The position numbers were made by a program, and so were the translations under genes. From a virus (taxonomy: Duplodnaviria; Heunggongvirae; Uroviricota; Caudoviricetes): DNA of 22,845 nt. The notes beneath the pieces were generated by a model, which was not told the origin of the DNA, did not search any database, and saw only the letters and a program-made list of their open reading frames with translations. This document shows positions 1-22,845 of the stretch, piece by piece. Each line of letters opens with the position of its first letter. The first letter of the stretch is position 1. The stretch spans positions 112,685 through 135,529 of IMG/VR virus record IMGVR_UViG_3300020171_000017, one strand, 5' to 3'.

Positions 1-197
1 TACCTTAACTTTACTACAATTTCTCCCATCCACACTGACTCTCAGAGAGGAAAAGAACTTGGGAAGCATTCTTTACATCTTTTCGGGCTACCACGCCCAG
101 AGAATTCAGTTACTATCTGTGTAGTCAATTGTTTAACCTGTTAAGACGATTGGTCTTCTCTTTTACAAGCCCCTATTTTTAAATAGGGGTTATTGAC
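1..197 (-). ncRNA. IscB-type omegaRNA (HEARO-like) scaffold at an IS200/IS605-family element end; the nuclease ORF would lie left of the window
   Basis: Minus strand begins GTCAATAACCCCTATTT-AA-AAATAGGGGCTTG (typical terminal hairpin), then TTGACTAC...AACTGAA...GGGCGTGGTAGCCCGAAAAGATGTAAAGAATGCTTCCCAAGTTCTTTTCCTCTCTG...AGTCAGTGTGGATGGGAG, which resembles IscB-associated omegaRNAs. Recognised by eye, no covariance model run. Confidence 0.7.
166..197 (-). mobile_element. IS200/IS605-type terminal hairpin (element end at 197)
   Basis: 9-bp stem CCCCTATTT (170-178)/AAATAGGGG (181-189) flanked by ACAAG and TTATTGAC on the plus strand. Confidence 0.7.
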
Positions 198-282
198 AAG
201 TACCTATAATGCTATTTGAACCATCCTGTAATCTGCTAATTGTTGTTAAGGGTATTCTAACACCTTGCACTGCTAGTGCCAT
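190..282 (-). pseudogene. 5' part (MALAVQGVRIPLTTISRLQDGSNSIIGT...) of a gene interrupted by the IscB-type element
   Basis: Strong RBS AGGAGG 5 nt before ATG at 282. The frame stops within the first bases of the element (T|GT CAA TAA). Confidence 0.6.
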
Positions 283-294
283 ATTTTCCTCCTT

Positions 295-1479
295 TCATTT
301 TTTCACATTCATATTTTTATAAAACTCCACCGCCTTTTTGTTCGCCTTAATCAAATTTTGCCTTAAATTTTTTACTGAAAGGCCTGCTTTGGTGCGAACT
401 CTACTCAAAGCTACATATGCTTGACCGCACTCGAAAGTACCTCTGAAATCGATACAGACCTTGTCTAAACTTAATGATTGTGATTTATGGATACTAATGG
501 CATATGCTAATCGTAAAGGTATTTGTGATCGAGAAGCTAATTCAATTTTATCATCCATGATTTTCGCTACGGTTTCATATCCTAAATCTAATGAGATATC
601 GTTATCAAACTTAACCGTGACAGTTTTGCCTATTATCTCTGCGACATTACCTATCGAACCGTTAATTAAACTTAGATCTATATATTTGTTAATTAATAGC
701 ATAACTCTTGCTCCGACTTTTAAATACAGATTTTTAGGTACGAGGCAATTCTTGTCGATAGAAGCTTTATGGTATTCGCTACCACTATCTCTAGCCTCGA
801 AATGATAGATTTGACCTTTAAGTTCAGCAAGTTTAGCTTCGTTAAATTTATCCGCAGGATAATTTAGAGCGAATAAATGTAGTGCGTCATCGTGTTTAGC
901 TGTCGACACAATATCAACAGCTTCACCAAAACGAATCTTATTAAGATCATTCAGAAAATCCACATCATTTTGTCGAAACTGCTCTTCTAAAAGCACAGTT
1001 TGGAAATTAGCTTCTTGCCAAGAGATGCTTTCGAAAGCGAACTTAACTTCTTTACCTTCTTTTTCGACTGGTGGTAGTTGTAGAAAATCGCCAATAACTA
1101 TTAGTTGTATTCCGCCGAAAGGATCGTCATTACGTTTAAGGATTTTAAATACATCGTTGATGAGATCTAGGGTATCGGCACTCAACATAGAGATTTCATC
1201 TATGGCTAAACGACGGCAATAAGAAATACGTGATCTTTGTTCGGTATGCATCGAATAAGCAATCTGGTTGGCTGATCTTTCACCGATTCCGATTCCCGAA
1301 AATGAATGGATGGTTGAACCACCTACATTGATTGCTGCAACGCCTGTTGACGCGGTAACTATAAGATCAGGTAAGTCTTGTTGCAATTTGTTGAGATAAA
1401 AGGACTTTCCTGTGCCAGCATTTCCAGTAATAAAGACATTCTTGTCTGATTGGATAAGAGATAAGATTTTTGTATACAT
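295..1479 (-). CDS. pif1: Pif1/RecD-like SF1B DNA helicase
   Basis: GNAGTGKS (Walker A), IDEISML, GDFLQLPPV, QIPLRLAYAISIHKSQ, GQAYVALSRV. Confidence 0.93.
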   Translation of the reverse strand: MYTKILSLIQSDKNVFITGNAGTGKSFYLNKLQQDLPDLIVTASTGVAAINVGGSTIHSFSGIGIGERSANQIAYSMHTEQRSRISYCRRLAIDEISMLSADTLDLINDVFKILKRNDDPFGGIQLIVIGDFLQLPPVEKEGKEVKFAFESISWQEANFQTVLLEEQFRQNDVDFLNDLNKIRFGEAVDIVSTAKHDDALHLFALNYPADKFNEAKLAELKGQIYHFEARDSGSEYHKASIDKNCLVPKNLYLKVGARVMLLINKYIDLSLINGSIGNVAEIIGKTVTVKFDNDISLDLGYETVAKIMDDKIELASRSQIPLRLAYAISIHKSQSLSLDKVCIDFRGTFECGQAYVALSRVRTKAGLSVKNLRQNLIKANKKAVEFYKNMNVKK

Positions 1480-1500
1480 TTACATTGTTATCCTTTTTAA

Positions 1501-1790
1501 TTTAAAGTAGGTGCGTGAAGTGGCAATGGCTCTAAAGGCAGATAAGTTTTATCTGTAACAATTAATTAAAAGTCTTCAAACGCATCTACTTTAAAGTGTT
1601 ATTAAAATTCTTGAAAGGATAGAAGTGACAACCTTGAAAAAGTCAGATAATTTTTATCTGTAACAGCACATTCGAAGTCTTCAATATCCTCTCAAGAATT
1701 ATATATAAATCGATCAGTGGAAGTGACATTGTCCATGAAGTCAGATAATTTTATCTGTAACAAACAAATGGAAGTCTTCAACACTGATCG
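1501..1790 (-). repeat. TIGR-like stem-loop array, 3 units, each with two 9-nt variable spacers
   Basis: Units 1711-1790, 1606-1700 and 1501-1595. Minus-strand core: UUGAAGACUU-N9-UGUUACAGAUAAAA(A)UUAUCUGACUU-N9-UGUCACUUC (unit 1501-1595 has a few substitutions). Each core is closed by its own unrelated 9-16 bp stem. Spacer pairs: CCAUUUGUU/CAUGGACAA, CGAAUGUGC/UUUCAAGGU, UUAAUUAAU/UAGAGCCAU. Confidence 0.9.
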
Positions 1791-1796
1791 TTGAAT

Positions 1797-2834
1797 TTAA
1801 AAAAAACTTTCAATTCCGTTTTGTTTATCTATTGCTTTTCCTAACAATAAACTAGTTTCTGATTTTTTTGTGATATCAAAATCTTTAAATTTAAAATATA
1901 TTTCTTTGCATAATAAAGTAGATATTTTATTCCTGGCACAGGCATTTGCGTAGCCATCAAAACTTAAATCTTTCCAGCCTTTTGATCTGCGTTGTTCGTT
2001 AAATTTTTCATGTTTTAATTTAAAGGCATCTGAGTTAAGATAATTTTCCCGCATAGACCTATAGATCGGTTCATAAACTTGATTTTCTTGTAGTAGCATT
2101 TGCCCTGTGCATTGATAGAACAAAGATTTTGCCTGGCGATTATATACTTGGTCTGATTTACTACCATTTTTACCGATATAACCACAGTATTTTAAATATT
2201 TTCTTACATTACTGAATAAAAAAGGTGTTGCTGTAATTAAAATTCTGCCAATTAATCTAAACCCTATACCACGTATGTTTAAAAATTCTTTATATAATGA
2301 AAAATATTTATCCATTTTTTGACCCATTAAATCTCGTTGAAAATTAATTGCTTTTAAACTCATTTTCAAGTCACGTAATTGATCTTTAATATTCTCATTG
2401 GGGTATTCACGTTCAAGAGCTAATAAATTTAGTTGTCCACGCACGCTTGTTTTTTCTAGTAAAGAATAGTTATTCTCAATGATTTTTAATGGTAAAAGAG
2501 AAATAGATAAAAGATTAAAATCTATAACTTCTATTTTATTGTTTAATATTGCATAACGTAAGAATAAGGCATCATTAGTATCAGTTTTTAAATAATTAGT
2601 ATTTTTTAGATCATGCAATTTTTTGCTATCAACTAAAAAAATCTGGACACCTGATTTTAATAATACGATTAATTGTTTTTTTGGACAACCTGTTTCTGAA
2701 TACAGAATATCGTTGGGCAAGATAATTGTATTAAGTTCTGCCCAATCAACTTCCAGGATTACCTCATCATTATTCTTACAAACCGCCAATTTTTTTATAT
2801 TTTCATGCGCCCAGTCGATATAATATGTATTCAT
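1797..2834 (-). CDS. tasR: TasR-like RNA-guided nuclease (IS110-type DEDD RuvC domain + coiled coil + Nop-like RNA-binding domain)
   Basis: D7 (YYIDW), E47 (SETG) and D85/D88 (KTDTNDA) form the IS110/RuvC tetrad. IRGIG...FSNVRKYLKYCGY...YNRQAKSLFY matches the IS110 C-terminal/Nop-like region with a short loop. The dual-spacer array starts 6 nt after the stop. Confidence 0.8.
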   Translation of the reverse strand: MNTYYIDWAHENIKKLAVCKNNDEVILEVDWAELNTIILPNDILYSETGCPKKQLIVLLKSGVQIFLVDSKKLHDLKNTNYLKTDTNDALFLRYAILNNKIEVIDFNLLSISLLPLKIIENNYSLLEKTSVRGQLNLLALEREYPNENIKDQLRDLKMSLKAINFQRDLMGQKMDKYFSLYKEFLNIRGIGFRLIGRILITATPFLFSNVRKYLKYCGYIGKNGSKSDQVYNRQAKSLFYQCTGQMLLQENQVYEPIYRSMRENYLNSDAFKLKHEKFNEQRRSKGWKDLSFDGYANACARNKISTLLCKEIYFKFKDFDITKKSETSLLLGKAIDKQNGIESFF

Positions 2835-2850: not shown

Positions 2851-2961
2851 TTATTTACATTTTAGATATAACGTATCGTTTTTATCATATATAACCGTTA
2901 TATCAATCAACCTGCCTTCTTTATAGATGAACCATTCGCACAAGTGTATAGTAATATTCAC
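2851..2961 (-). CDS. possible 36-aa ORF (GTG start overlapping the upstream stop)
   Basis: MNITIHLCEWFIYKEGRLIDITVIYDKNDTLYLKCK; GTGA overlap with the upstream ORF. Confidence 0.3.
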   Translation of the reverse strand: MNITIHLCEWFIYKEGRLIDITVIYDKNDTLYLKCK

Positions 2962-3197
2962 TTTTTCCTATATTCGCGCATATAATTTTTCATATAATCT
3001 TTATGATTCACTCTCCAATTTTTCATCATATTATTTAATTTAACAGAATTGTTAGCATAATAATTTTTTTCACATTGTAACATTTTATCGCGGCATATAG
3101 CGCAGCGGTCAGCTTTCATTATTTTTCTTATACCGCAGGTAATACATAAACCTGCGGCTTTCTTTTTTAATTGCCAAGCTCTTTGCCTATTAATTAT
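2958..3197 (-). CDS. basic CxxC...CxxC zinc-finger protein, non-ATG (ATA/ATT) start
   Basis: AGGAG RBS at 3203-3207, then a 79-codon open frame containing CITC...CAIC and ending MKNYMREYRKK. Missing from the ORF track. Confidence 0.55.
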   Translation of the reverse strand: MINRQRAWQLKKKAAGLCITCGIRKIMKADRCAICRDKMLQCEKNYYANNSVKLNNMMKNWRVNHKDYMKNYMREYRKK

Positions 3198-3218
3198 AAT
3201 TACTCCTTTTTAAATTTA

Positions 3219-3487
3219 GGCACAGGCAAGAAGAAAAAAGAATTAAGGAACAACAACCAATAAGAATCAACAACATGAGGGGTTTTTTTATGTGGACAAC
3301 AACCAACAACATCCCCACAAAGGGAGTTTCTTTTTTAGTTTTTTACCCGCACAACAATCCCCGATATCCAACTGGATAAGTTATTAATTCAATCTCCTTC
3401 TCAGACCTCACTATTTAATTGCACTCGCCACAACTTATGAGGTATAAGTGTAGCACTAGCAAAACAAGACAGTGAGTTGCCTATGCC
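3219..3487 (-). ncRNA. unassigned structured RNA, about 270 nt
   Basis: Helices 3477-3487/3219-3229 (11 bp), 3384-3400/3230-3246 (15 of 17) and 3469-3476/3407-3414. Most mismatches are G-U wobbles on the minus strand. Internal GUUGUUG repeats. Confidence 0.55.
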
Positions 3488-3494
3488 GTTAAAT

Positions 3495-3794
3495 TCACTC
3501 TAAAGGTTTTAATAAATCTTCAACGCTTATTTCAAAATCCAATTTTGTTATTGCGTTGCTTGTTTTTACAGCCGAGTCAGCTAAAAACAAGAAATTCTCC
3601 AACTCAACAACTTTACGATCAACAATTTTTACATCGAATTGTGGTTCTATTTCTTTCCTTTTTTGTTCCTGATCACCGAAATAATTCGTTTCTTTAGTCG
3701 CTAAACTCTGCCTTAAGGACCTTAATTCATTTAATCGCTCCCGAATTATTTTCGTCAAACTTAAGACTTGATTTATGCTCATTTTTTCAGACAT
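3495..3794 (-). CDS. hypothetical coiled-coil phage protein
   Basis: 99 aa ORF with AAGGAG RBS. Confidence 0.75.
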   Translation of the reverse strand: MSEKMSINQVLSLTKIIRERLNELRSLRQSLATKETNYFGDQEQKRKEIEPQFDVKIVDRKVVELENFLFLADSAVKTSNAITKLDFEISVEDLLKPLE

Positions 3795-3956
3795 TGTATT
3801 TCTCCTTTTTTATTTGTAGTAATTACTAAAATTTTGTTCAGTTACTTTTTTTTCTAAAAAATTCACTACAGCACTTTTATATATTTTAACACCGTTAATA
3901 TAATAGAACAATTTGGCAAGATACATATTGTCTGTATTATTAATTTTTGTAATTTC

Positions 3957-4217
3957 TCAAGAATCTAATAAAACTTCGTTCCCCATAGATTTTTCTATAG
4001 AAAGCTCTAAACCAAAAACTGTACCAACAGTGTCCATACCCGATAGGCTAGAAATCCGATGAGTTAATACAATATTTTTTATTTCTTCACTTTGTTCACG
4101 AGATTTCTTATATTTAATAATTATTGCTTCTTCTAATGTATTATAATCTTCTCCACAACCACATAGAAATAATACAAATGTTAGAATAAATATAAAATTA
4201 TTATTTTTTCTTAACAT
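3957..4217 (-). CDS. hypothetical, possible lipoprotein
   Basis: Basic N-terminus, hydrophobic stretch and LCGC lipobox-like motif; AAGGAG RBS. Confidence 0.55.
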   Translation of the reverse strand: MLRKNNNFIFILTFVLFLCGCGEDYNTLEEAIIIKYKKSREQSEEIKNIVLTHRISSLSGMDTVGTVFGLELSIEKSMGNEVLLDS

Positions 4218-4236
4218 ATTGTATTTCTCCTTTTAT

Positions 4237-4719
4237 TTATTTCGCTTGATGGTTAATCGTTCTGGTTAACGAATAATCAAAGCCTGGCGGTATAGACTGT
4301 CCAGCTTCAATTCTTTTTTTAAGCAACTCATTTATACGCGCGGCTATCGGCTTTAATCGCAGTACTTCATCAAATAACCCATTTTCTTTCAGCCATTCTT
4401 CTGCCACGCTCATATCAGTAATCTTACCATAAAGCCTGTTTGCTAAAGATATCAAACCAAATTCAGCTGTACGAAATTGGTCAATACCTACATCTTTCAT
4501 GCGTTCATAAAGTGATAGCTCCATTTTTTCCTTCTGATCATAGATTTCGGATAACTTCTTTTTTTCTGTATCATACCTTTCTTCTAATTCTAACAACCTG
4601 CGCGTTAAATCCAGAATTTCGTGTGTTGGCGTGATAGATATAGTAGTATCAGCAGAATGATGTTCGAGTAAATTATTGCCTGAATGATCTTTAGAAGTTT
4701 TTTTTGGTTTATGTTTCAT
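4237..4719 (-). CDS. hypothetical phage replication-module protein (coiled coil; C-terminal IPPG motif)
   Basis: 160 aa ORF, operonic with neighbours. Confidence 0.7.
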   Translation of the reverse strand: MKHKPKKTSKDHSGNNLLEHHSADTTISITPTHEILDLTRRLLELEERYDTEKKKLSEIYDQKEKMELSLYERMKDVGIDQFRTAEFGLISLANRLYGKITDMSVAEEWLKENGLFDEVLRLKPIAARINELLKKRIEAGQSIPPGFDYSLTRTINHQAK

Positions 4720-5103
4720 TTAAATTCCTTTCTTTGGTTGGTTCTCGTTAATTATAGCTTCAATTGCGAGTACCATTTTCGCCTTGATAGTCGGATCGCT
4801 GCGGATAGCATTAATCGCATGGTCAATTGTAGAAGTCAGGTGATCAACCATCGCGCGAGCTATCTTATGGTCAAACGCTTGCCGAACGGCTTCGACAAAT
4901 TCCTTTTTTTCTAAAGTTTGAGATAATGCAGAATAGACTATTTCACGTAGTTGCGTATCGTGTACTTTAAAAGCATCATCAATCAACTTTTTAAGCGGTG
5001 AATCGTAACTTTTAAGTTTTTCCCAGATAGTTGTATGAATGCCTTCTTGAATGCTTGAAAGTATTATTTTTTCAAAATCAGTTAATTTTTTTTCCATTTT
5101 CAT
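4720..5103 (-). CDS. hypothetical helical protein
   Basis: 127 aa ORF with AGAAAGGA RBS. Confidence 0.7.
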   Translation of the reverse strand: MKMEKKLTDFEKIILSSIQEGIHTTIWEKLKSYDSPLKKLIDDAFKVHDTQLREIVYSALSQTLEKKEFVEAVRQAFDHKIARAMVDHLTSTIDHAINAIRSDPTIKAKMVLAIEAIINENQPKKGI

Positions 5104-5112
5104 CCTTTCTTT

Positions 5113-5376
5113 TTAAAACTTCCCGATTCTACTTTTAAAAGTTTGTTTAGTTATGGTGGATCTATGTTTTTCACCAGTTAAGGCAATAGTGACTGCCAAT
5201 CCTGTAATTCCCAACCAAACTTGGATAGGCAATAAAAATACCGTTCCAATAATAATTAATATTAATTTTTGCCAAAAAGTTGTCGGCTGTAATATTAACC
5301 ACATGCCAACAAATATTTCTGTTGGTATTAACGCTAAAATCAAACCAAACATTGACCAAAATAATTTTTTAAACAT
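5113..5376 (-). CDS. small membrane protein (2-3 TM)
   Basis: Hydrophobic segments and a basic C-tail. Confidence 0.7.
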   Translation of the reverse strand: MFKKLFWSMFGLILALIPTEIFVGMWLILQPTTFWQKLILIIIGTVFLLPIQVWLGITGLAVTIALTGEKHRSTITKQTFKSRIGKF

Positions 5377-5380
5377 AGAT

Positions 5381-7054
5381 TTAATCTCCTAACATTTCTA
5401 GCAATGTATCTTTATCTAATGCAACGCCCAGCTCTTCTTCAATAATCGTATCTTCTCGAAATAAAATTTTGCTGGCTTTTTGTTTATTTTCTAAAATCTT
5501 GAGCCAGTGCCCGTCAACCGTATCCTTCGCCAGTAGCCTGATAATAACCACGTTTTTTGTCTGGCCAATTCGGTGATTCCTGGCTTCGGCCTGAATAACC
5601 GTTGACGGAGACAAGAAACTCAAATCTGTGAACACAGCCACATTGCCGGCGTGCAAAGTAATACCCATACCGCCTGTTTGCACGGTACCGATGATGATTT
5701 TGCAGTTAGGATCGGTCTGAAAGCGGTTAATGTTTTTATCTTTTTCTTCTGCTGACATACCGCCCCAAAAGAAAGCGCAGTTATACGTAACGGTTTCGCC
5801 ATTATATTTAAAGCCTTCAGTATAGCGTTTATAAATATATGCGGTAAACGCACGAAACCTAGTCCAGATAACTATTTTATTGCCTGAAGATAATACCTCA
5901 TCGATAATATCGTCAAGTGCTTTTACTTTCGGGTTTTCTTTATAAAACATAGGCTGGTTAAGTTTCACATCAGTAATAAACCCGCAAGTCAGTTGCGATA
6001 ACCGCAGCATTTGAGTTAAGATACCATTAGCCTTCGCGATTACATCTTCATTAGACATGTTTTTTATAGTTACCTTCATCTCTTCTTTCATTGTAGTATA
6101 AGCCCTTAGTAAATCTCCTGAAAGCAAAGTTTCCCGCTCTTCATATGTCTTTTCAGGCAAGTCTAAAGTCTCACTTGCTAACCTGCGGATAAAATACGGT
6201 TCGAGTTTTTTCTTTAATTCATCCAAATTCTTATACCCCACCACTTTTTTAAAACTAGGTGCTTCCCATTCAGGAGTTACACAGCAACAAGTATAAATTT
6301 TAGCATATCTTTGTTCAGGCGACCATTTTCCGCAGCATTTACATTTTCTGCCTTTACTTGATTTTTTACTTTCCTCTGTTTCGTGTAGTTTTATGGTAAT
6401 AGTCTCGACATATTTATCAAAGAAACTCCAATACGAGCCAAGATACCCAGGCTTTAACCAATCGAATTGCGACCAAACATCAATAATTTTGTTCGCCGCT
6501 GGGTACCCTGTTATGGCTATTTTATACTTAAAAGGAATTTTTTTTAATTCCTTGGTACGTTTAGAATCTCTGGTTTTTATATAAACACTCTCGTCAATTA
6601 TGCATAAGGAATTAATAGAAAACTTTAACAAATAACCGCTATCTTTAAGTAATTGCTCATAATTCATAATAAGATAAAAAACATCTTCCCTCGTTAAAAA
6701 GGTAAAATAAGTTTCTTCCCTTTTTTTCATACTTCCATCAACAACCAGGCATTTCTCGTCGGTAAACTTTTCAATTTCACGTTTCCAAACGGAATACTTA
6801 GTAGTTGCTGGACACACAATCAGGCATTTTTTAATTTCGCCTTTTTGTTTACGTAATAAGGATAAACCTAATGATTGTAAGGACTTGCCAAGTCCGAGCT
6901 GATCCGCGAGCATTGCAGTATCAAGGTTAAGAAGGTAGTTTATTCCTGTTTTTTGGTGATTGAATAAAGTAGCCTTTAATTGTGGCACTTCAATCGTACA
7001 ATCAGGCAAAGCTTTTAACGCTAAAAGTTTCTTTTCAAACTCAGAATATTCCAT
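5381..7054 (-). CDS. SNF2-family helicase/translocase with Cys-rich insertion
   Basis: LADQLGLGKS, CPAT, IDES, ITGYP, QLTCG, TGGMGITL, QAEARNHRIGQ motifs. Confidence 0.92.
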   Translation of the reverse strand: MEYSEFEKKLLALKALPDCTIEVPQLKATLFNHQKTGINYLLNLDTAMLADQLGLGKSLQSLGLSLLRKQKGEIKKCLIVCPATTKYSVWKREIEKFTDEKCLVVDGSMKKREETYFTFLTREDVFYLIMNYEQLLKDSGYLLKFSINSLCIIDESVYIKTRDSKRTKELKKIPFKYKIAITGYPAANKIIDVWSQFDWLKPGYLGSYWSFFDKYVETITIKLHETEESKKSSKGRKCKCCGKWSPEQRYAKIYTCCCVTPEWEAPSFKKVVGYKNLDELKKKLEPYFIRRLASETLDLPEKTYEERETLLSGDLLRAYTTMKEEMKVTIKNMSNEDVIAKANGILTQMLRLSQLTCGFITDVKLNQPMFYKENPKVKALDDIIDEVLSSGNKIVIWTRFRAFTAYIYKRYTEGFKYNGETVTYNCAFFWGGMSAEEKDKNINRFQTDPNCKIIIGTVQTGGMGITLHAGNVAVFTDLSFLSPSTVIQAEARNHRIGQTKNVVIIRLLAKDTVDGHWLKILENKQKASKILFREDTIIEEELGVALDKDTLLEMLGD

Positions 7055-7059
7055 TTTCT

Positions 7060-7299
7060 TTAATTTATGGTTGTAGTTTTTTTCTCAATGTGACTAATCA
7101 CTTCACCTACAGTTAAAAGCCGTTCAGCTTCGTTATCAGGTATTTCTATTTTAAAAACATCTTCTAATTGCAAAGTTATTTCAATCTTGTCCAACGAATC
7201 AGCGCCTAAATCATCAAAAGTAGTAGTATCGGAAATGTTTTCGATCTTAACACCAAGTTGATTGGCAAATAGTTCTTTCACTTTGTCAGAGGCAGTCAT
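7060..7299 (-). CDS. acpP: acyl carrier protein
   Basis: 79 aa acidic protein with DLGADSLD (phosphopantetheine Ser) and EIPDNEAERLLTVGEVI. Confidence 0.93.
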   Translation of the reverse strand: MTASDKVKELFANQLGVKIENISDTTTFDDLGADSLDKIEITLQLEDVFKIEIPDNEAERLLTVGEVISHIEKKTTTIN

Positions 7300-7309
7300 T
7301 TTAATCTCC

Positions 7310-8779
7310 TTAATTAATTTGGTTTAACCTTTCAAGTCCAGCTTCAGCAATAAACTGTTTACTTGTAGTTAATATATATTCTTTACTGCGCAAGAAAGGA
7401 AAGATCATTTCTTCAAGAGTATCTCTATCGATATCGCATGTACCTGCCAATGTTTTAATACCCATACCTTTAGGGTATCTTGCCAGAGTAGATAAGACCT
7501 TTAAATCAATTTCAGTCAAGCCGTCTGGCTCTATTTTTTGAGTAGCCATTTCCTCTTGCACCGTAACGGTACTGATACTTTTTTCATGTTTATACACAGA
7601 CCTGTCTCGGCAAGCCATTAGATACCCTATCACCACACGAGGCACGCCGCGCGCGCGTTTAGCAATTTCAAGTACCGCTTCTTTTTCAATCGGTATTTCC
7701 TCTTTTTCAGAATTAAATTGAATAATTTTCACCAAATCGTTGACAGAGTAGGATTTCAAGTAACATGATAAAGGCAACCTATCTCTTAAAGGTTTTTTAA
7801 GTGTGCCTGGGTTTGTAGTAGCGCCGATGATCGTAAAAGGCAACCGCGTGCCGATAATATTAGCCGTAAGTATACAATCTACTCCATCAACTAACACCTT
7901 TGTTCCTGATAAACTTGAATAGAAGATATGAGATTCCATTAAAGAAAAGAACATTTCATCAGGCATTTCCTTACTGGAAAGTTTATGTATCTCATCAAAA
8001 AAAAGAATAGCGTTCTTACCTGATTCCTGAATAAGATCTATTTCACGCATAGCGAAATACAAATCTTTTTGCGAACCGATTGAGCCGCCGGTGCGCTGTA
8101 CGCAGATAGAGTCCATTTCGTTAGCGATTATCTGTGCTAGAGTGGTTTTACCAGTATTATGTGTAATAATCCAATCATTAGTTATGTACCAACCACTAGG
8201 AGAATTAAGTGTAAATCCGTAAACCATTTCTTTTTTATTCTCTGGGGTGACAAACATTGATTTTATCCTTACATTCTTCCATTTAGTAGAGAATTCAATA
8301 GCAGAAGCAAAAATTCCGAATTTATTTCCTATATTTGAAAACTCGCCTGCTGGAACATTTACATAGCTATTACAAGATACACATTTACAAACTAAAAGAT
8401 GTTCTTTAGCAACACGGTATTCTCCATAATTAATTTTTCTAATAACTCCAGATTTCCTTTTACCAACAACAACTTTATAGATATTTGATATATATTTTTT
8501 AGTGTCTAGTACTGTCGCTATAACAGTAGTGTCATCTGATTGAGGAGAAAAGACTTGGTCGCCTTTTTTAATTAACTCAACATTTTTCCATTTCCCATTA
8601 GCCATCAAAACTTTTTGTCCTTTAGGTTGGCATCCAGCCTGGCCATATAACAGAATATTAGGTAACATAGTTGAACGTGCTTTAGCTGAAACGATAGCGA
8701 TACGCAGCCTTTCTACCGTATCTTTGTTAGTTTCTCCTTGAAACTCTTCAAGTGTTGTCGGTCTCATTAGATTTTCCAC
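7310..8779 (-). CDS. ruvB: Holliday junction branch-migration ATPase RuvB, intein-containing
   Basis: RPTTLEEFQG, split Walker A GQAG|TGKTT, FFDEIH, IGATT...PLRDRL, ARGVPR. Confidence 0.9.
   Translation of the reverse strand: MENLMRPTTLEEFQGETNKDTVERLRIAIVSAKARSTMLPNILLYGQAGCQPKGQKVLMANGKWKNVELIKKGDQVFSPQSDDTTVIATVLDTKKYISNIYKVVVGKRKSGVIRKINYGEYRVAKEHLLVCKCVSCNSYVNVPAGEFSNIGNKFGIFASAIEFSTKWKNVRIKSMFVTPENKKEMVYGFTLNSPSGWYITNDWIITHNTGKTTLAQIIANEMDSICVQRTGGSIGSQKDLYFAMREIDLIQESGKNAILFFDEIHKLSSKEMPDEMFFSLMESHIFYSSLSGTKVLVDGVDCILTANIIGTRLPFTIIGATTNPGTLKKPLRDRLPLSCYLKSYSVNDLVKIIQFNSEKEEIPIEKEAVLEIAKRARGVPRVVIGYLMACRDRSVYKHEKSISTVTVQEEMATQKIEPDGLTEIDLKVLSTLARYPKGMGIKTLAGTCDIDRDTLEEMIFPFLRSKEYILTTSKQFIAEAGLERLNQIN
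8156..8632 (-). mobile_element. 159-aa mini-intein in the RuvB P-loop
   Basis: Starts CQPKGQKVLMANG, ends WIITHN, followed by Thr(+1). No LAGLIDADG motifs seen. Confidence 0.9.
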
Positions 8780-13141: not shown

Positions 13142-13450
13142 CTATTTGCATATGTTCTCACCATCTGCTGGACCTAACATACTTTTAAATCCGACTATCG
13201 TCTTAACTATTTTATTATCACAAGTATCGACTATTTCTGCGTAAGTTTTTTCAGCTTCTATATCCCACCGCCAGGTATCTTCAAATGCTTGAATTTGAGC
13301 TTTTGATTTTGTGCCGTCTTGCTCTTGAAACAAAAGATTATAATTCTTACCTGACTGAAACGGTGGGTCAAGGTAAATTAAATCAATCGATTCGGTTGGG
13401 ATATGTTTTCTTAAAATTTCTAAATTATCACCATAATAAAGTGCGTTCAT
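13142..13450 (-). pseudogene. truncated beta-class N6A DNA methyltransferase (N-terminal part only)
   Basis: LYYGDNLEIL...SIDLIYLDPPF...AFEDTW; ends before the RVLK and motif I regions. Confidence 0.8.
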
Positions 13451-13821: not shown

Positions 13822-14798
13822 AGTCCTTTCTTGTTCTGCAACTCTTTTGTTAATACTTCAATTGTTTTTTTGTATATTCTGCGTAACGAAGTTATAGTAT
13901 TTCTATTCAGGCGTTTTCTCTCTAATTTAGAAATGCCTTTGATCGCATCCGAAAGACAAGAAAAGATATAAAGCGCATGTTGATTGTCCGAAATCATCTT
14001 TTTATCCTCGTGCATCTTTTTATGCTCTATAATTCTATCCTCGGACTCTTCTTCTGTTTCTTTTGCTGTTTGCAGGGATATCAAATCTGCTTCACCAGAT
14101 AAGATTTTGTTTTTAATATTTGTTGGAGCGGTTTTATACATCGTAATCAGTTTAGCCTGATCGCCCGTCCTTTGTGCGATAGAAGATTTTAATGCTGTTG
14201 CCAATGCTTTTTGTTCTTCGTGGTTTTTAAATAAAGAGAGCATCTCCGCCTGGCTAAGGTTAATCATATCGCTTTGCGGTTTATGGCCGCCCTCTTGGCT
14301 CTCTATCTTGTTTATTAAATCTGGAGCTAAATTCTCGGCTATACGCAGCAGTGCCCAAATTCCTTCTTTATTAACTGTTTTACCATCAACCGATATGAAT
14401 TTAACAATATCAGCAGCATTAACATTTTTATAGTGTAACGTATCTATTAAATACTTTTTCGCTAAAACAGCTGATCGCATACGTAAATTCCAACCATGCT
14501 CTCTGGTAAGGTTTTCCCGCAACAACTCAACGAGCATTTTACTATCGTTATAATCTCTGATTAATATTTCAACTTCAATCCCTGTGCCGTAATAAGATCT
14601 TAATGCTTCAAGCCGATGATGGCCATATACAAGTTGGTATCCACTGCCAGTAATACGTACTTCAAACCTTTGGTTTTTGCCGAAATCCGACATTTTAAAA
14701 CTTTCTTTAATCCTATCGATTTGATTATTATCAAGGTTGCCAAGTTCTTTTCTAAACGGATTCGGTGCTATTAACTTTTCAATAACTTTCATTTTCAT
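13818..14798 (-). CDS. ParB/Srx N-terminal domain protein
   Basis: YQLVYGHHRLEAL and ENLTRE motifs. Confidence 0.8.
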   Translation of the reverse strand: MKMKVIEKLIAPNPFRKELGNLDNNQIDRIKESFKMSDFGKNQRFEVRITGSGYQLVYGHHRLEALRSYYGTGIEVEILIRDYNDSKMLVELLRENLTREHGWNLRMRSAVLAKKYLIDTLHYKNVNAADIVKFISVDGKTVNKEGIWALLRIAENLAPDLINKIESQEGGHKPQSDMINLSQAEMLSLFKNHEEQKALATALKSSIAQRTGDQAKLITMYKTAPTNIKNKILSGEADLISLQTAKETEEESEDRIIEHKKMHEDKKMISDNQHALYIFSCLSDAIKGISKLERKRLNRNTITSLRRIYKKTIEVLTKELQNKKGL

Positions 14799-14806
14799 CT
14801 CCTTTT

Positions 14807-15235
14807 TTAATTTATTTTAATATCATATTGTATGGTTATATCCTTTTTCTCATAAAGGCTTATTGTTTGGGTAGATAAAATCATGCTGTTTTTAAGAAAA
14901 GATTGCACCTCCTCTTGAGTTTCAAAACCGCAAATGTTACTGCTATTAATATAAAGTATATACTTCGCGCCAAATACGAGTTTAGTTTCTTTTGGTTTAG
15001 AAGATCCTGGTTTATACTTTAAATCTGGATTCTGCACACCACGTAACCAAGTATAAAGTCCAGCACCACCTATATGCCGATTAAACTTCGCATTGTATTC
15101 TTCAAGGATTTTAAGATCTCTAATTTTAGCACCTTTAATATCGTTATTAAGTTTAGTAGCAATGACTTCTTTCGCCCAAACTACTTCTTCTTCACTATGC
15201 TTCGGTCCTTTGTATCCGCCTATTCCCATTTTCAT
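14807..15235 (-). CDS. hypothetical protein
   Basis: 142 aa ORF with RBS. Confidence 0.65.
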   Translation of the reverse strand: MKMGIGGYKGPKHSEEEVVWAKEVIATKLNNDIKGAKIRDLKILEEYNAKFNRHIGGAGLYTWLRGVQNPDLKYKPGSSKPKETKLVFGAKYILYINSSNICGFETQEEVQSFLKNSMILSTQTISLYEKKDITIQYDIKIN

Positions 15236-15245
15236 TCCTCCTTAA

Positions 15246-15536
15246 TTAAATTGGTTTGTCTTCTACTTGCTTTTCGATATCAATAATCCTAACTTTTTTG
15301 TTAAACTGTTTTGCCAAACCTCTTGGGCTTGATATGATTAAACCTGTTGCATCTAAATTGAAATAATCCCATTCATAAGTTGTATTTGCGCCATGCCAGG
15401 ATTCACCTGTTTTTATGCGGATGCCGTAACCATTGTCATTTTTAAATACTGCAGGACTAAATTTACCAAAAACACGCATACTTGATATTTTGTGTTTATA
15501 TGGAAACTGATCAAAACTAATTTCTCTCACTTTCAT
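15246..15536 (-). CDS. hypothetical protein
   Basis: 96 aa ORF with AGGAGG RBS. Confidence 0.65.
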   Translation of the reverse strand: MKVREISFDQFPYKHKISSMRVFGKFSPAVFKNDNGYGIRIKTGESWHGANTTYEWDYFNLDATGLIISSPRGLAKQFNKKVRIIDIEKQVEDKPI

Positions 15537-15551
15537 TTTTATACCTTTCTT

Positions 15552-15779
15552 TTAATATTTATTTATTTGCGGTTTAGATCCTAAACGATAAAATAAATCA
15601 CGAATTAAATGCGGTGGGAAGTTTTCCCAACTGCCTAATTCGTTTATTAATTTGTTAACCAGCCAATTCTCCTTTTTAAATTTTTCAATTTTTTCATTAA
15701 ATTCATTTAATGGAATAATTGGTAAACTATCAACTTGTTCTTGTGTTATCTTCCTTTCTATTTGTCGTTCAATCATCAT
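15552..15779 (-). CDS. hypothetical protein
   Basis: 75 aa ORF. Confidence 0.6.
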   Translation of the reverse strand: MMIERQIERKITQEQVDSLPIIPLNEFNEKIEKFKKENWLVNKLINELGSWENFPPHLIRDLFYRLGSKPQINKY

Positions 15780-16243
15780 CTTACTAAATAAAGGCTTTTC
15801 GAAAACCTTATCGCTTCCTTAATTTTATCTTTAGGCAACTTCTTGGTTAAGGTATCTTTTATCGCTAAAGAAACCGCATCTTTTAAATTAGTATAATCGC
15901 CTAACTTCTCAAGATCCTCAATTATACCTGTTACAGTATCATTAACTATATCTTGCTCAGATTGAGATAAAATTAATTGAGGATATGAGGCCACTACTTC
16001 TTCTTTAACAATTGTTTCCGATTCTTTAACGACAGGTATTTCTTCTTTAGGCAAAACTTTTTCTTCCTCTTTTACAACAGGTTTTATTTTCGGCACAAAA
16101 GCACTTTTCTTGCCTCCTCTCACGCTTTTACAATGTGTGCATTCATAAGTTTTTAATACTTCTTCGGTATACTTTTCAGGGTAGTTAGTAGTTACAGGCG
16201 TGGTATCGTTGCATTTGATACAGATAAGCTTGATTTTTGACAT
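15776..16243 (-). CDS. zinc-ribbon protein with EK-rich linker
   Basis: CIKC...CTHC at the N-terminus; AGGAG RBS. Confidence 0.7.
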   Translation of the reverse strand: MSKIKLICIKCNDTTPVTTNYPEKYTEEVLKTYECTHCKSVRGGKKSAFVPKIKPVVKEEEKVLPKEEIPVVKESETIVKEEVVASYPQLILSQSEQDIVNDTVTGIIEDLEKLGDYTNLKDAVSLAIKDTLTKKLPKDKIKEAIRFSKSLYLVR

Positions 16244-16337
16244 TTTAATATCTCCTATTTAATTAAAGGTTTTTAATTTTGTTCTGGTTTACAACTCAAT
16301 CCTTTATTTTTTTATTTTTTATACCTCCATAAATAGT

Positions 16338-16479
16338 TTGCGGGTATGCCTCAGAGCAAAGGCACACCCGCAATATCGCCCCTTAAAAATATTGACGCAG
16401 GATTAGAAAGGATAGAAACCTGCATCGGTTTCAAGAGGTTCTTTTAAGCACTTCTGCCATAACAGGCAGGTTCAAGTGC
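16338..16479 (-). ncRNA. three-hairpin leader or small RNA
   Basis: Stems 16448-16479, 16394-16426 (8 bp, 17-nt loop) and 16338-16373 (14 bp); G-U wobbles favour the minus strand; lies just downstream of a promoter. Confidence 0.5.
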
Positions 16480-16498
16480 GAATCTAATTTCTATTATA

Positions 16499-16527
16499 AC
16501 TATGGCATATTACTACGTCATTGTCAA
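16499..16527 (-). promoter_or_regulatory. sigma70-type promoter
   Basis: TTGACA-17 nt-CATAGT with extended TG, followed immediately by TATAAT. Confidence 0.55.
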
Positions 16528-16600
16528 GATATTCTTTTTGCCTTGTAATTTTTACTGAAAGAAGTGTTTTTTAGGGTTTGGGATCAAAAACTTCTTGATT

Positions 16601-16816
16601 CTAACAATTCTGTTTCGCTAATTCTTTACTCATACGTTCGAGTAGATTTTCCATTCTCTCAATCACATTTTTATCTACCTCAATACATGTTTGTTTTCCT
16701 TTTTCACTATAGTCATATTTATTGGATAGCAAATCATTTAACGCTTCTTTTCTAAGTTCAATTCCTGCATGTAATGATTCTCGTAATGTAAATAGTTCTT
16801 CAATGTTTAATTTCAT
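16601..16816 (-). CDS. hypothetical protein
   Basis: 71 aa ORF with AAGGAG RBS. Confidence 0.65.
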   Translation of the reverse strand: MKLNIEELFTLRESLHAGIELRKEALNDLLSNKYDYSEKGKQTCIEVDKNVIERMENLLERMSKELAKQNC

Positions 16817-16829
16817 TTAATCTCCTTTC

Positions 16830-17060
16830 TCAATCTATCCAAAGCGACCATTTCAACGTCTTTTTCCTCCTACTGCCTTTCAATGGTTTTAAATATACAT
16901 CTGTTTTCTTATCCGTTCGCTCAATTTTAACTGTTTCAGGAAAATTATATTTAACTAAATGCGTAATGGCTTCATCAGTCCCGCAACTAAACGGCAATGT
17001 TGAATAGACAAAGCCATTAAACCGTTTTCTTTCCTGTTTTATAAAATCGGATATTTTCAT
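16830..17060 (-). CDS. hypothetical protein
   Basis: 76 aa ORF, ATGA-coupled. Confidence 0.6.
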   Translation of the reverse strand: MKISDFIKQERKRFNGFVYSTLPFSCGTDEAITHLVKYNFPETVKIERTDKKTDVYLKPLKGSRRKKTLKWSLWID

Positions 17061-17650
17061 TTTCCAAATACTTCTTCTGTCAATTCTTTTGCGAACTTTT
17101 TATCCGATTTCGCTCGTTTCACATCCGTCTCAAGTTGTGTTAATCGTTGTTCCACTTTTTTATCTTGATCGGCAATAATTTCTTTTTCTATCGCGTACAA
17201 CAATTTTCCCATTTCTTCTATAATCACTATTCTATCAGTTGCCCAACATGGTTGAGAAGGTGATACGATTTGTCCAAAATCGTTACGCCTAAACAGTTGT
17301 TTCAACGCGTAAAGATCTGGATACGCAGCAATCCAGCCTTGTTTATTATAGTGAGCGATCGTGCCGCAACAAAGATGGAAAAACTTATACAACTCATCGG
17401 TTAGAGATTGCATTCCATTTTTCAGCAAGCGTTTAAAATGAGAAATTAGTTTTGTTTTACTATACACGCTGTTTCCATCATACAATATGCTTGCCTTGAC
17501 ATCATCAACCACATAATTTTGCAAAGCTATCCGATCTTCACCTTCTTCACCTGTAAGTTTTAAATTTGATATTTTTTCTTCTGCAAACTTAATTTCTTTA
17601 TCACTGCCGTATAAAGTTATTTCTGTGCCTTCGATTTTTTTGTTATTCAT
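17057..17650 (-). CDS. hypothetical phage protein
   Basis: 197 aa ORF containing CCGTIAHYNKQGW. Confidence 0.7.
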   Translation of the reverse strand: MNNKKIEGTEITLYGSDKEIKFAEEKISNLKLTGEEGEDRIALQNYVVDDVKASILYDGNSVYSKTKLISHFKRLLKNGMQSLTDELYKFFHLCCGTIAHYNKQGWIAAYPDLYALKQLFRRNDFGQIVSPSQPCWATDRIVIIEEMGKLLYAIEKEIIADQDKKVEQRLTQLETDVKRAKSDKKFAKELTEEVFGK

Positions 17651-17907
17651 TTTAAATCTCCTTTTTTTATTTTCTCAATTCTCCATTGACCATAATCTAA
17701 CAACCAATCCAGTTGGTCTTTAGTGGTATTAATTTCCCAAAACTTAAAATACTCCAAAATTTCTAATTCATTATTTTTATCATCAGTACCTATAAAATCA
17801 ATATTATGAAAATCTGCAAGCTGTTCAACAATCTGTTCTTTTGTTTCATACAATTCCCCATTAGCGAAGTATTTACCTGGAGTTTGTAAATCGGCTATGC
17901 GGTACAT
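17647..17907 (-). CDS. hypothetical acidic protein
   Basis: 86 aa ORF with GGAGG RBS. Confidence 0.65.
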   Translation of the reverse strand: MYRIADLQTPGKYFANGELYETKEQIVEQLADFHNIDFIGTDDKNNELEILEYFKFWEINTTKDQLDWLLDYGQWRIEKIKKGDLK

Positions 17908-18056
17908 TTTAACCTCCTTTCTGTTTCTTTATTCCTAAATAAAAAATCTTTACAACCAATAACTTCGCTGCATTTCACACTTTTAATATTACACCAATCA
18001 CTGCCTTCTCCTTTAATTCGGTACGCTCGCCAGAAACAAAGTTTCTTAAGTTCCAT
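17895..18056 (-). CDS. small Cys-rich protein (53 aa, start MELKK)
   Basis: AGGAG RBS 4 nt before ATG at 18056; overlaps the tail of the upstream ORF. Confidence 0.45.
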   Translation of the reverse strand: MELKKLCFWRAYRIKGEGSDWCNIKSVKCSEVIGCKDFLFRNKETERRLKCTA

Positions 18057-18946
18057 TTTTCTCCTAACACACAGCGTTTCGCTATTGAAATATACAAATT
18101 TTGATCCCAATCATCTCTGAACTTAGTTATCTTCTCTATTCTCCAGCCTGTTTCATGCCTGCCGCCGTCTTTCAGGTAATAACCATCACCCATTGACCAT
18201 TTCTCGCGGTGTTCTAACTCTTCTTCTTCTATTCTCCAACTAAATGGTATTAATTTACCTTCAAAACTTATACTGCAAGGTTGTCCTACTTTAATTATAT
18301 AATCTTCAGCCTCCTTCCTTGTTTTGAACACAATTTGTTTTCCGTGCGCTTCGTTTAACTCTCTATGCCAGTGGGAATAGGCTCCTTGGTGGTAATAGCC
18401 ATCTGACTTAAAATCGGCTCCTATCAGCACCCTAGCCTCAAAATGACCGTATCCTACAGCCAGGTGCGCGGTTTCAGGTATCTTTGTTGCGTATTTTCGC
18501 ATTTCAGAGAAAAGATCCCGTTTATGTAGAGAAAACCCTAGAATTACAGTTCCCGAACTGATATGGCTGAAATAATCAGTTTGGACATCAGAATCATTAG
18601 TATCGTAACAAGCGATAATCAACGCTTGTGCTGTAGTAGAGATATACTTCTTAAACAATTCACGTCCTTTCTTCTCTAAATCATTACTTGTTTCTATCGC
18701 TTTTGATTGCGCATTCATCATCCTTTTTCTGTTCTCTTCAGATTTCTGCCACAAATCTAATACTTCATCAGGCGTTTTTATTTCAGTAGTAATATAAGTT
18801 TGTATCCTATCATCTTTCTTTTCACTAAAATACTTCAGTTCATAAGCATTCTTTCTTTGTTGCCCAAAATCCACTAGTGAAACCACAAGATACTTTGCGC
18901 CATAATAATTGTACTTCTCATCTACCCCTAAATTCTTGACAATCAC
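17975..18946 (-). CDS. hypothetical phage protein, probably the 3' part of a split gene
   Basis: Contains TDYF and EHREKWSMGDGYYL; GTG start lacks an RBS and abuts the repeat element. Confidence 0.65.
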   Translation of the reverse strand: MIVKNLGVDEKYNYYGAKYLVVSLVDFGQQRKNAYELKYFSEKKDDRIQTYITTEIKTPDEVLDLWQKSEENRKRMMNAQSKAIETSNDLEKKGRELFKKYISTTAQALIIACYDTNDSDVQTDYFSHISSGTVILGFSLHKRDLFSEMRKYATKIPETAHLAVGYGHFEARVLIGADFKSDGYYHQGAYSHWHRELNEAHGKQIVFKTRKEAEDYIIKVGQPCSISFEGKLIPFSWRIEEEELEHREKWSMGDGYYLKDGGRHETGWRIEKITKFRDDWDQNLYISIAKRCVLGEKWNLRNFVSGERTELKEKAVIGVILKV

Positions 18947-18965
18947 TGAAGAGTATTAATAGTTC

Positions 18966-18994
18966 TTGACAATCCTATTTAAATATAATAGAAT
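18966..18994 (+). promoter_or_regulatory. sigma70 promoter inside the repeat, antisense to the phage genes
   Basis: TTGACA-17 nt-TAGAAT; copy at 22618-22646. Confidence 0.7.
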
Positions 18995-19185
18995 ATTATT
19001 ATATTGAACGGTGTTCAATAAGCTGTTATGAATGGGCATATATTTCGCAAGTTTGTTATCTTTGTGATATTTACAAGGATGATAAATTTTATTGTGCTAA
19101 ACACAAGGAAGTAAATGCTCATTACAACGCCACTATGAATATTCTTATTAGAATAACGGTTGAGACTGTCCAACCAAGACTCTAG
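18970..19185 (+). pseudogene. tnpB: degenerate TnpB C-terminal fragment
   Basis: NIIEY...AYISQVCYLC...FYCAKH...NAHYNATMNI matches the TnpB YTSQxCxxC...C...NADxNAAxNI pattern, with the RuvC-III Asp replaced by His; no start codon. Confidence 0.7.
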
Positions 19186-19230
19186 ATATGATATAACTAT
19201 ATCAGAGAGCGAAAAAATCCATACATACAT

Positions 19231-19657: not shown

Positions 19658-19658
19658 T

Positions 19659-21864: not shown

Positions 21865-21870
21865 AGTAAA

Positions 21871-22002
21871 TTATTTGACTTCTCGTTCTTCGATAGAAAA
21901 TTCTTTTTCTGACCAGATATTATTTTCAGGCTTTTTTCTCCAATCTGCGATATATTGTTCTGCTTTTAATTCAGTATCAAATACAGCTGAAATCCATAAC
22001 TC
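21871..22002 (-). pseudogene. start-less 3' fragment paralogous to 21673-21864
   Basis: ELWISAVFDTELKAEQYIADWRKK...EEREVK versus DIDAVFNTNPKAEKYVADYKKK...QEWEVK. Confidence 0.55.
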
Positions 22003-22141
22003 CCGCTGTGGCTTCTTTTTGATATTGCTCAATCAAATCGGCATGACCCGCTCGCCGTAATGCTTGAGTCACTCTACCCATGATCATAAAAGCATTGCCG
22101 TCTTTACCCACTAACCTAACTGTTACATTTGTTTTTGGCAT
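21977..22141 (-). CDS. phage protein MPKTNVTVRLVGKDGNAF..., C-terminus apparently truncated
   Basis: AGAAAGGAG RBS before the ATG at 22141; frame changes at the junction near 22003. Confidence 0.55.
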   Translation of the reverse strand: MPKTNVTVRLVGKDGNAFMIMGRVTQALRRAGHADLIEQYQKEATAGVMDFSCI

Positions 22142-22197
22142 TTGTATATCTCCTTTCTTAAAAATTAATAGCAAATGATTCCACATCTTTATTCATT

Positions 22198-22578
22198 TTA
22201 ATACTCGCTCGGCAAAAACAAAGTTCCGTTCTGAAACCAAACTATAACTTCACGCATTGGGAAATCAGTAAAACCTAAAATCTCATTGTATAAACTGTTA
22301 CCGTTTCCATCTTTACAAACTAAAGCAGCGGTTTTATCTTCTTTTACAGATAATTTCCAAACCCCAAATTCTTGCAGTTTTGGTTTATATCTTGTAATAA
22401 TTAAGATTTTGTCCAATAACCAATACGCACCCGCTTTCTCTGCCAGATATTGTATGCCATCAGTATAAACATAGCCACTTAATGGGTGTTTGTAGTAACT
22501 TTCGGTTCCGGTAAATTGTTCTAATTCATTTTGCGTTAGCATTTGTGTATTCTCCTTTCTATTTTTTAAATCTACCAA
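22198..22578 (-). CDS. DUF6876-like phage protein
   Basis: QFTGTESYY, YTDGIQYLAEKAGAYWLLD, TDFP and C-terminal LPSEY; likely start at 22542. Confidence 0.7.
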   Translation of the reverse strand: MVDLKNRKENTQMLTQNELEQFTGTESYYKHPLSGYVYTDGIQYLAEKAGAYWLLDKILIITRYKPKLQEFGVWKLSVKEDKTAALVCKDGNGNSLYNEILGFTDFPMREVIVWFQNGTLFLPSEY

Positions 22579-22610
22579 TTTTTTTAAATCCTATTTCATT
22601 AAGAGTTTTT

Positions 22611-22845
22611 ATAGTTCTTGACAATCCTATTTAAATATAATAGAATATTATTATATTGAACGGTGTTCAATAAGCTGTTATGAATGGGCATATATTTCGC
22701 AAGTTTGTTATCTTTGTGATATTTACAAGGATGATAAATTTTATTGTGCTAAACACAAGGAAGTAAATGCTCATTACAACGCCACTATGAATATTCTTAT
22801 TAGAATAACGGTTGAGACTGTCCAACCAAGACTCTAGATATGATA
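22611..22845 (+). repeat. copy 2 of the promoter-tnpB relic repeat (runs off the window end)
   Basis: Identical to 18959-19193; tnpB relic at 22622-22837. Confidence 0.97.

Follow-up and report, generated by a model that had tools for sequence, protein, structure and literature searches.

TIGR-Tas (2025) and VIPR (a 2026 preprint) are very recent additions to the known RNA-guided systems, and their diversity and their roles in nature are still being worked out. The architecture of stem-loop TIGR arrays has been described by Faure et al. (2025, PMC12045711), and the CUU and UG boxes of their units, together with a hairpin in the loop that separates one spacer from the other, by Xu et al. (2026, bioRxiv 10.64898/2026.09.09.750476). 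VIPR pairs a phage RAMP protein, Vipr, with vrRNAs made of GGY/NN pentamers; it reads DNA non-contiguously and represses competing elements (bioRxiv 10.64898/2026.04.26.720920, 2026). The methods of that preprint also name the alternative repeats NNNGG, YNNNG and NNNNG. Its winged-helix proteins are the products of separate vap genes, and a search of its main text finds no mention of a fused winged helix-turn-helix (wHTH). Here we examine the last 22,845 nucleotides (nt) of a linear virus contig of 135,529 nt from IMG/VR (IMGVR_UViG_3300020171_000017). We call this stretch the window, and positions given with the prefix C1 are those of the whole contig. The window is the co-oriented replication and early-gene arm of an uncultured tailed phage of ~135 kb. 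It probably embeds four compact RNA-guided modules of known kinds, namely a TIGR-TasR system, a VIPR-like RAMP with pentamer arrays, an IsrB element and dead fragments of TnpB.

A first-pass annotation of the window, made from its letters, had named an IscB-type omega RNA at the left edge, a TasR/TIGR system, a RAMP with a pentamer array and duplicated tnpB relics, and had let the Tas and RAMP calls hang on structure searches. Those searches recovered both folds, and the first three assignments are upheld by the evidence below. The fourth survives in part: a 99% identical duplicate with a TnpB-like remnant exists, but the fragment is sub-threshold and weak. The evolutionary labels attached to the modules (relatives of Cas9, of Nop/IS110, of Cas7 and of Cas12) follow the literature. 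The accumulation of systems is stronger than had been claimed, because an intact TnpB is also present on the same contig, as is a second VIPR, of canonical type. Adding these to the modules of the window gives at least five RNA-guided loci in a phage without a CRISPR array. As each kind of system has been described before, the novelty lies in the number per genome and in a few variant features. New are the stacking of at least five such loci in one phage, an intact DEDD tetrad in a stem-loop TasR, a RAMP that is fused to a wHTH, has pentamers anchored by GU and occurs beside a canonical VIPR, and a near-cognate site within the phage's own DNA.

The TIGR array (1501–1802, minus strand) begins directly after the stop codon of the 345-residue tasR open reading frame (ORF) and holds three units of ~100 nt (1699–1802, 1603–1703 and 1501–1595). 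It was delineated from its repeats and inverted repeats, a regular expression, RNA folding and covariation. Each unit consists of an outer stem, UU, GAAG, ACUU, N9, UGUUAC, CAGAUAA-loop-UUAUCUG, ACUU, N9, UGUCAC, UUC and the other side of the outer stem, an arrangement that agrees with both published descriptions cited above. The spacer pairs (A/B, 9 nt each) are CCATTTGTT/CATGGACAA, CGAATGTGC/TTTCAAGGT and TTAATTAAT/TAGAGCCAT. A regular expression for this layout finds exactly three units on the entire contig. The array folds with z=-6.5 relative to shuffled sequences. The outer stems are variable in sequence yet palindromic: an alignment of the three units shows 13 of 14 pairs changing on both sides with pairing kept. 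The cells of this stem are paired in 94.7% of cases, compared with 35–40% when the partner columns are slid, and none of 500 shuffles reaches that level. At two homologous loci (L004 and L005), the same CUU-N9-UG units flank tasR on both sides, with different loop repeats and spacers.

TasR itself (1797–2834, minus strand) has an N-terminal RuvC domain (D7, E47, D85, D88), a long coiled coil and a helical, Nop-like C-terminal domain, as judged from NCBIfam, alignment and Foldseek. Residues 142–283 match the NCBIfam family NF052498 (TIGR_Tas_endo, E 1e-9), and residues 44–92 match the RuvC domain of IS110 (E 2e-4). In the AlphaFold2 (AF2) model, an RNase H-like sheet comes first, then a pair of long helices and finally a helical domain. 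Foldseek ranks the TasR structure 9MTY first for this model (E 6e-6), followed by IS621, TasH and Nop5, a ranking that fits the predicted topology. Sequence searches of the Protein Data Bank gave no identification of the protein, and a search of IMG/VR for loci related to tasR found nothing. The family is tiny: three homologues were found, 57–86% identical, and D7, E47, D85 and D88 are invariant across them.

From this anatomy we infer how the module would be expressed and processed. The three units would be transcribed together with tasR and then cut into tigRNAs, each clamped by its own stem and each offering two spacers of 9 nt that lie between a CUU (box C) and a UG (box D). On an 18-bp stretch of DNA, a dimer of TasR would pair one spacer with one strand and the other spacer with the opposite strand. 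The DEDD tetrad of the RuvC domain is intact, and TasR therefore probably cuts or nicks the DNA there.

A structured non-coding region (3120–3494, minus strand; fold z=-5.07) with segments rich in (GUU)n is located upstream of the TasR operon. Its core, including GUUGUUG-rich stretches, is nearly identical in a relative (L006) whose ORFs on either side have diverged, and compensatory changes are seen in one 5' stem. No Rfam family matches the region. The 5' part was considered as a degenerate tigRNA and rejected because its CUU-N9-UG spacing does not fit. Between this region and tasR, a 53-residue Cys-rich ORF (2958–3119, minus strand; CxxC...C) is conserved but fast-evolving in the same relative; no family match was obtained for it.

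The second module centers on a protein of 291 residues (11673–12548, minus strand), a Vipr-like effector in which a wHTH (residues ~8–115) is fused to a Cas7-like RAMP domain (residues ~134–291). An exhaustive HMMER search delimits its family at 76 cluster representatives, and an alignment of 63 sequences yielded an AF2 model with a predicted local distance difference test (pLDDT) of 90.5. The top 50 Foldseek matches are all chains of the Cas7 family (type VII Cas7, Csm3, Cmr4 and Cas7-11), with E ~1e-7. Independently of this, the all-against-representatives structural search of VIA aligns residues 134–291 to Csm3 and Cmr4 (Z 12.1–11.4) and residues 8–115 to winged helices of the PadR/MecI type (Z ~9). 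Every sequence route to the RAMP failed, and its identity therefore rests on structure: Pfam returned 0 matches on 63 family members, and nothing came from NCBIfam, from tblastn against GenBank phages or from a feature search with ESM. The neighbors of the locus are replication and methylase genes, with no multi-gene cas operon.

Two pentamer tracts, both on the minus strand, follow the gene. Tract 1 (11557–11676), the candidate guide region of a vrRNA, starts at the RAMP stop codon and comprises 24 in-phase (G/a/t)T-NNN units, with T at position 2 in every unit and G at position 1 in 16; it is 100% identical in three independent contigs. Tract 2 (11316–11430) comprises 23 in-phase units, 22 of them with the T and 12 with the G, and ends at the ribosome-binding site of the methyltransferase gene. 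Between the tracts is an ORF of 38 codons (11431–11547, minus strand), called as a gene in contigs L030–L032, or possibly the tail of a vrRNA. The autocorrelation of GT downstream of the RAMP gene at 5, 10, 15 and 20 nt reaches z=18. The 5-nt periodicity recurs beside homologues that are 40–75% identical (z=11.6 in L009, 10 in L011 and 3.8 in L010), and the RAMP gene is the only gene common to the homologous loci. In the last of these, ~1.3 kb of non-coding DNA rich in GT and poor in C (L010 2563–3884) comes after the RAMP relative and may be a long or degenerate guide region. Written as (U-NNN-G)n, the array of the window fits the YNNNG class of VIPR repeats.

We suggest that the wHTH-RAMP protein would bind transcripts of the adjacent (GUNNN)n tracts and make a single RAMP-type contact with each pentamer. 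In this scheme, the invariant (G)U would anchor the protein, and the variable bases would read DNA non-contiguously, as shown for the GGY/NN vrRNAs. The fused wHTH may take the place of a separate winged-helix accessory protein, and the likely output of the module would be binding and repression.

A comparison with VIPR proper was made through Escherichia phage SUSP1, whose Vipr was located via its YNNGG arrays; a family profile was built from it and compared with that of the wHTH-RAMP family. The same SUSP1-type profile detects a canonical Vipr homologue of 183 codons elsewhere on the contig (C1:88698–89198, minus strand; E 3e-27), followed by three YNNGG arrays (whole locus C1:87987–89198, minus strand). 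Thus, the phage has two different RAMP-plus-pentamer systems.

At the left edge of the window is a probable omega RNA of the HEARO family (197..1, minus strand), which extends 6 nt beyond the edge. The Rfam model RF02033 matches 197..17 of the minus strand, and with 6 nt of extra flank it is matched from end to end (model positions 1–211, E 1.3e-4). An ORF of 339 residues (C1:111638–112657) starts 21 nt downstream of this RNA, where such an ORF would be expected, just outside the window. Its N-terminus contains a PLMP/RRXRR module and the RuvC-I motif GIDPGS. Pfam RRXRR is matched with 98.2 bits (cutoff 25) and NCBIfam guided_IscB with 86 bits, the latter over residues 7–156 only, with no more than the N-terminal half of the IscB model aligned. 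No HNH family match was found in this ORF. Its short length and missing HNH domain identify it as IsrB-like rather than IscB.

The fourth kind of module is represented by a direct repeat of 245 nt, whose two copies (18949–19193 and 22601–22845, plus strand) are 99% identical, the second being cut by the end of the contig. On the plus strand, each copy carries a frame of 70 codons (18970–19179 and 22622–22831) without start codon or RuvC core, in which CxxC...CxxH is followed by NAHYNATMNI. The frame resembles the C-terminal zinc ribbon (TNB) of TnpB and Cas12f: it matches PF07282 with E 0.0075 and is collinear with residues 317–354 of the phage's own TnpB (E 0.09), and 98 of its 100 nearest clusters in ESM feature space are TNB fragments of PF07282. 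The TnpB hidden Markov model NF040570 found nothing in the window, nor did tblastn with the phage's own TnpB find a relic there. That protein is encoded by an intact frame of 398 codons (C1:21314–22510, plus strand; NF040570, 136 bits), the DNA of which is unrelated to the repeats. The reading of the two copies as dead 3' fragments of a tnpB gene is plausible but weak. The contig and an independent one, L030, both break at this repeat, which may be longer than what is seen and may explain why assembly stopped.

The first-pass annotation had reported no CRISPR locus, and we found no spaced non-coding repeats on the contig. The only spaced repeats, at C1:45946–46420, were rejected as a CRISPR array because they are coding, specifying Ser-Pro-Ser repeats.

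Several of these results weigh against the assignments just made. The match of TasR to TIGR_Tas_endo scores 38.7 bits, below the NCBIfam cutoff of 100, and the AF2 model of the protein is of low confidence (pLDDT 57.5), its alignment having had only four sequences. The HEARO match, at 33.3 bits within the window and 36.5 bits with the added flank, is under the Rfam gathering score of 83, and the tnpB remnant (16.9 bits) is under the PF07282 cutoff of 26.3. As to the RAMP, the canonical GGY/NN (YNNGG) consensus is absent: the repeat is (G)U-NNN, and it is accommodated solely by the YNNNG alternative. No conserved accessory (vap) gene was found among the homologous RAMP loci. An hhalign comparison of the wHTH-RAMP profile with the SUSP1-type Vipr profile, which represents type II only, is not significant (probability 1.4%, E 0.035), although the two align in the expected order of the beta1/alpha1 motifs; the wHTH-RAMP family has no match in SUSP1. 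Finally, no natural external target was found for any guide when exact tigRNA 18-mers and pentamer patterns were searched against IMG/VR. We accordingly file the wHTH-RAMP module, which would operate in the manner of a VIPR, as VIPR-like, a label that stands without the GGY consensus and vap gene and with protein homology compared against type II only.

An important question regarding the biology of this phage is what the modules do. The first-pass annotation saw in them programmable weapons for conflict between phages. For TIGR and VIPR, this reading is plausible by analogy; it is ill-fitting for IsrB and TnpB, which are transposon-borne nucleases and not evident weapons. Because no competitor target turned up in the searches of IMG/VR and the only match of note lies in the DNA of the phage itself, inter-phage conflict is an idea borrowed from the TIGR and VIPR papers. 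That match belongs to tigRNA3. Arranged as rc(A)+B, its spacers agree at 17 of 18 positions (9/9 in spacer B and 8/9 in spacer A) with C1:70947–70964 (L013 4947–4964), a site ~90 nt downstream of the gene for the phage's transfer-messenger RNA (tmRNA), in the gap that separates this gene from the following ORF. By chance, ~0.005 matches with at most one mismatch would be expected, summed over all six arrangements of the spacers. Spacer A is of low complexity, the match is a single case, and no predicted sigma-70 promoter overlaps the site; we treat it as a lead rather than a result. Exact 18-mer targets of the tigRNAs in IMG/VR (5, 3 and 1 matches in the rc(A)+B arrangement) were set aside, being at the level of chance and on contigs not similar to the phage by blastn; none lies near a tRNA or tmRNA gene. 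The tmRNA (142 bits) is accompanied by at least 10 tRNA genes, on the minus strand, in the same part of the contig (C1:66001–76000).

These facts raise the possibility that the TIGR-TasR and RAMP/pentamer systems mainly regulate genes of the phage or its host, through repression or site-specific nicking, and that IsrB and TnpB are simply resident insertion sequences. The near-match of tigRNA3 and the failure to find competitor targets favor such a role, as does the fact that stem-loop TasR and TasA proteins are repressors (bioRxiv 10.64898/2026.09.09.750476) and that VIPR acts via repression (bioRxiv 10.64898/2026.04.26.720920). However, the RuvC tetrad of TasR is intact here, unlike that of the characterized repressor TasRs. 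Further, the self-match is solitary, with its low-complexity spacer and no clear promoter overlapping, and the pentamer guides have no self-match: scans of the phage's own genome with skip rules of 0–3 and with NNN and NN read-outs returned the arrays themselves only. We regard a chiefly regulatory role as possible, if somewhat unlikely. Three exact-pattern scans of IMG/VR with the pentamer guides gave 0 matches, but exact matching is a weak test that says nothing either way.

A more specific proposal may be put forward still more tentatively. In it, the wHTH-RAMP protein and its (GUNNN)n tracts would form an orthogonal, single-protein class of VIPR-like system with its own anchor and a different read-out of at most three coding bases per pentamer, kept beside the GGY/NN VIPR against cross-loading of guides. 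TasR, for its part, would act on the tmRNA-adjacent self site as a programmed nick or regulatory site.

The pentamer tracts might instead act as double-stranded DNA, and the wHTH of the neighboring protein could bind them as iterons, as an origin or as an array of promoters. The PadR/MecI-like character of that domain, the location of the locus within a replication module and the TATAAT-like hexamers inside the tracts would agree with this. But the tracts are strongly strand-asymmetric (C 8–11% versus G 19–33%) and are co-oriented with the RAMP gene in all four divergent loci. Moreover, the partner domain is an RNA-binding RAMP of the Cas7 type, and the published design of vrRNAs has exactly this combination of a 5-nt period and inner bases that vary. 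We therefore consider a role as DNA-binding sites improbable and favor the reading of the tracts as guide RNAs.

Phages are known to carry cas-derived inhibitors. Given that its nearest folds are Csm3, Cmr4 and type VII Cas7, the wHTH-RAMP protein could in principle be a viral mimic of Cas7, an anti-CRISPR decoy that poisons class 1 effectors of the host, with the tracts unrelated to it or acting as decoy RNA. This is highly unlikely: identity to Cas7 proteins is a mere 8–21%, the family has conserved 5-nt arrays of its own whereas Cas7 binds with a 6-nt period, and an autonomous system is indicated both by the fusion to a wHTH and by the canonical VIPR locus that the genome carries in parallel.

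Last and least probable is that the co-occurrence is an artefact of a chimeric contig, an idea prompted by its ending inside the 245-nt repeat and by a CheckV completeness of 77%: the GC content and GC skew of the window are uniform, all of its sizeable ORFs lie on the minus strand, three contigs from other samples (L030, L031 and L032) independently reproduce the gene order over ~3490–18990 with identical RAMP gene and arrays, and the more distant L006 joins a 99-residue ORF, the non-coding region, the small Cys-rich ORF and tasR, which together make the chimerism raised in the first-pass annotation unlikely over most of the window.

The window also has several genes for replication and modification. 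Pfam identifies, all on the minus strand, a Pif1 helicase (295–1479), a SNF2 helicase (5381–7054), a RuvB-like ATPase with a Hint insertion (7310–8779), a tyrosine integrase (8748–9725) and an N6/N4 methyltransferase (10366–11304), as well as a MarR-type helix-turn-helix protein. The closest cultured phages share only ~29% identity in the SNF2 protein. The Hint-domain match of the RuvB-like ATPase covers residues 50–132 and is sub-threshold (E 5e-5); the P-loop of this protein apparently holds a mini-intein (...GQAG-C....HN-TGKTT...). An ORF of 102 residues (13142–13450, minus strand) corresponds to the N-terminal, DPPF-containing part only of a DNA methyltransferase and probably represents a gene that has been truncated. 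After it come ~230 nt of non-coding DNA, in which a near-consensus promoter (TTGACT-17-TATAAT) occurs. A 326-residue protein (13818–14798, minus strand) shows weak similarity to the N-terminal part of ParB/RepB (E 2e-5 to 0.04). ParB-like genes are sometimes linked to TIGR-TasA loci; here, the gene is 11 kb from tasR.

The analysis establishes what the parts are and how they are built, and from this and from the published systems we infer their expression, processing, targets and biological role. The contig constitutes a natural test bed for whether co-resident RNA-guided systems cooperate, compete or stay orthogonal, for whether a wHTH fusion replaces the VIPR accessory protein, and for whether the non-contiguous code differs between a GU and a GGY anchor. 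Candidates for a natural target of TIGR are scarce, and the 17/18 self-match supplies a concrete one. At 345 and 291 residues, the compact proteins are also of interest as tools.

How, then, do the modules compare with their closest known counterparts? Like the TNB region of TnpB and Cas12f (PF07282), the repeated fragment has a CxxC...CxxH remnant and an NA..NA..NI stretch collinear with the C-terminus of TnpB; it differs from an intact TnpB in being ~70 codons long and duplicated, with neither start codon nor RuvC core. The element at the left edge resembles the IsrB/IscB OMEGA systems in that a probable omega RNA is placed immediately 5' of an ORF whose N-terminus is of the PLMP/RRXRR type and which has RuvC motifs. 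It departs from IscB in that its 339-residue ORF is devoid of an HNH domain, and its RNA is below the Rfam threshold.

With the class 1 Cas7 proteins Csm3 and Cmr4, the wHTH-RAMP protein shares the RRM-based RAMP fold, a loop rich in glycine ahead of the last strand, and a beta-hairpin at the position of the thumb. In contrast to class 1 CRISPR-Cas, it constitutes a single-protein system, without CRISPR repeats or other cas genes, and the period of its RNA is 5 nt rather than 6 nt. It is likewise comparable with VIPR (for example, type II of Escherichia phage SUSP1; bioRxiv 10.64898/2026.04.26.720920). Both feature a phage-borne, stand-alone RAMP of the Cas7 fold and flanking intergenic arrays of 9–24 pentanucleotide repeats with conserved and hypervariable positions, and both do without cas genes or a CRISPR array. 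The differences are that a wHTH is fused to the RAMP here, that there is no separate conserved vap gene and that similarity to the SUSP1-type Vipr is not significant.

The counterparts of the TasR module are the stem-loop TIGR-Tas systems (PMC12045711; bioRxiv 10.64898/2026.09.09.750476). The units in tandem, in which CUU and UG enclose each of two 9-nt spacers, the variable palindromic outer stems, the hairpin in the inter-spacer loop, the position of the array beside a phage-encoded tas gene, and a Nop-domain Tas protein with N-terminal RuvC and coiled coil are all held in common. The present system differs in that its array has three units only and in that one of its spacer pairs nearly matches the phage's own genome. 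Further, its TasR conserves the DEDD tetrad, whereas the two structurally characterized stem-loop TasRs are catalytically dead.

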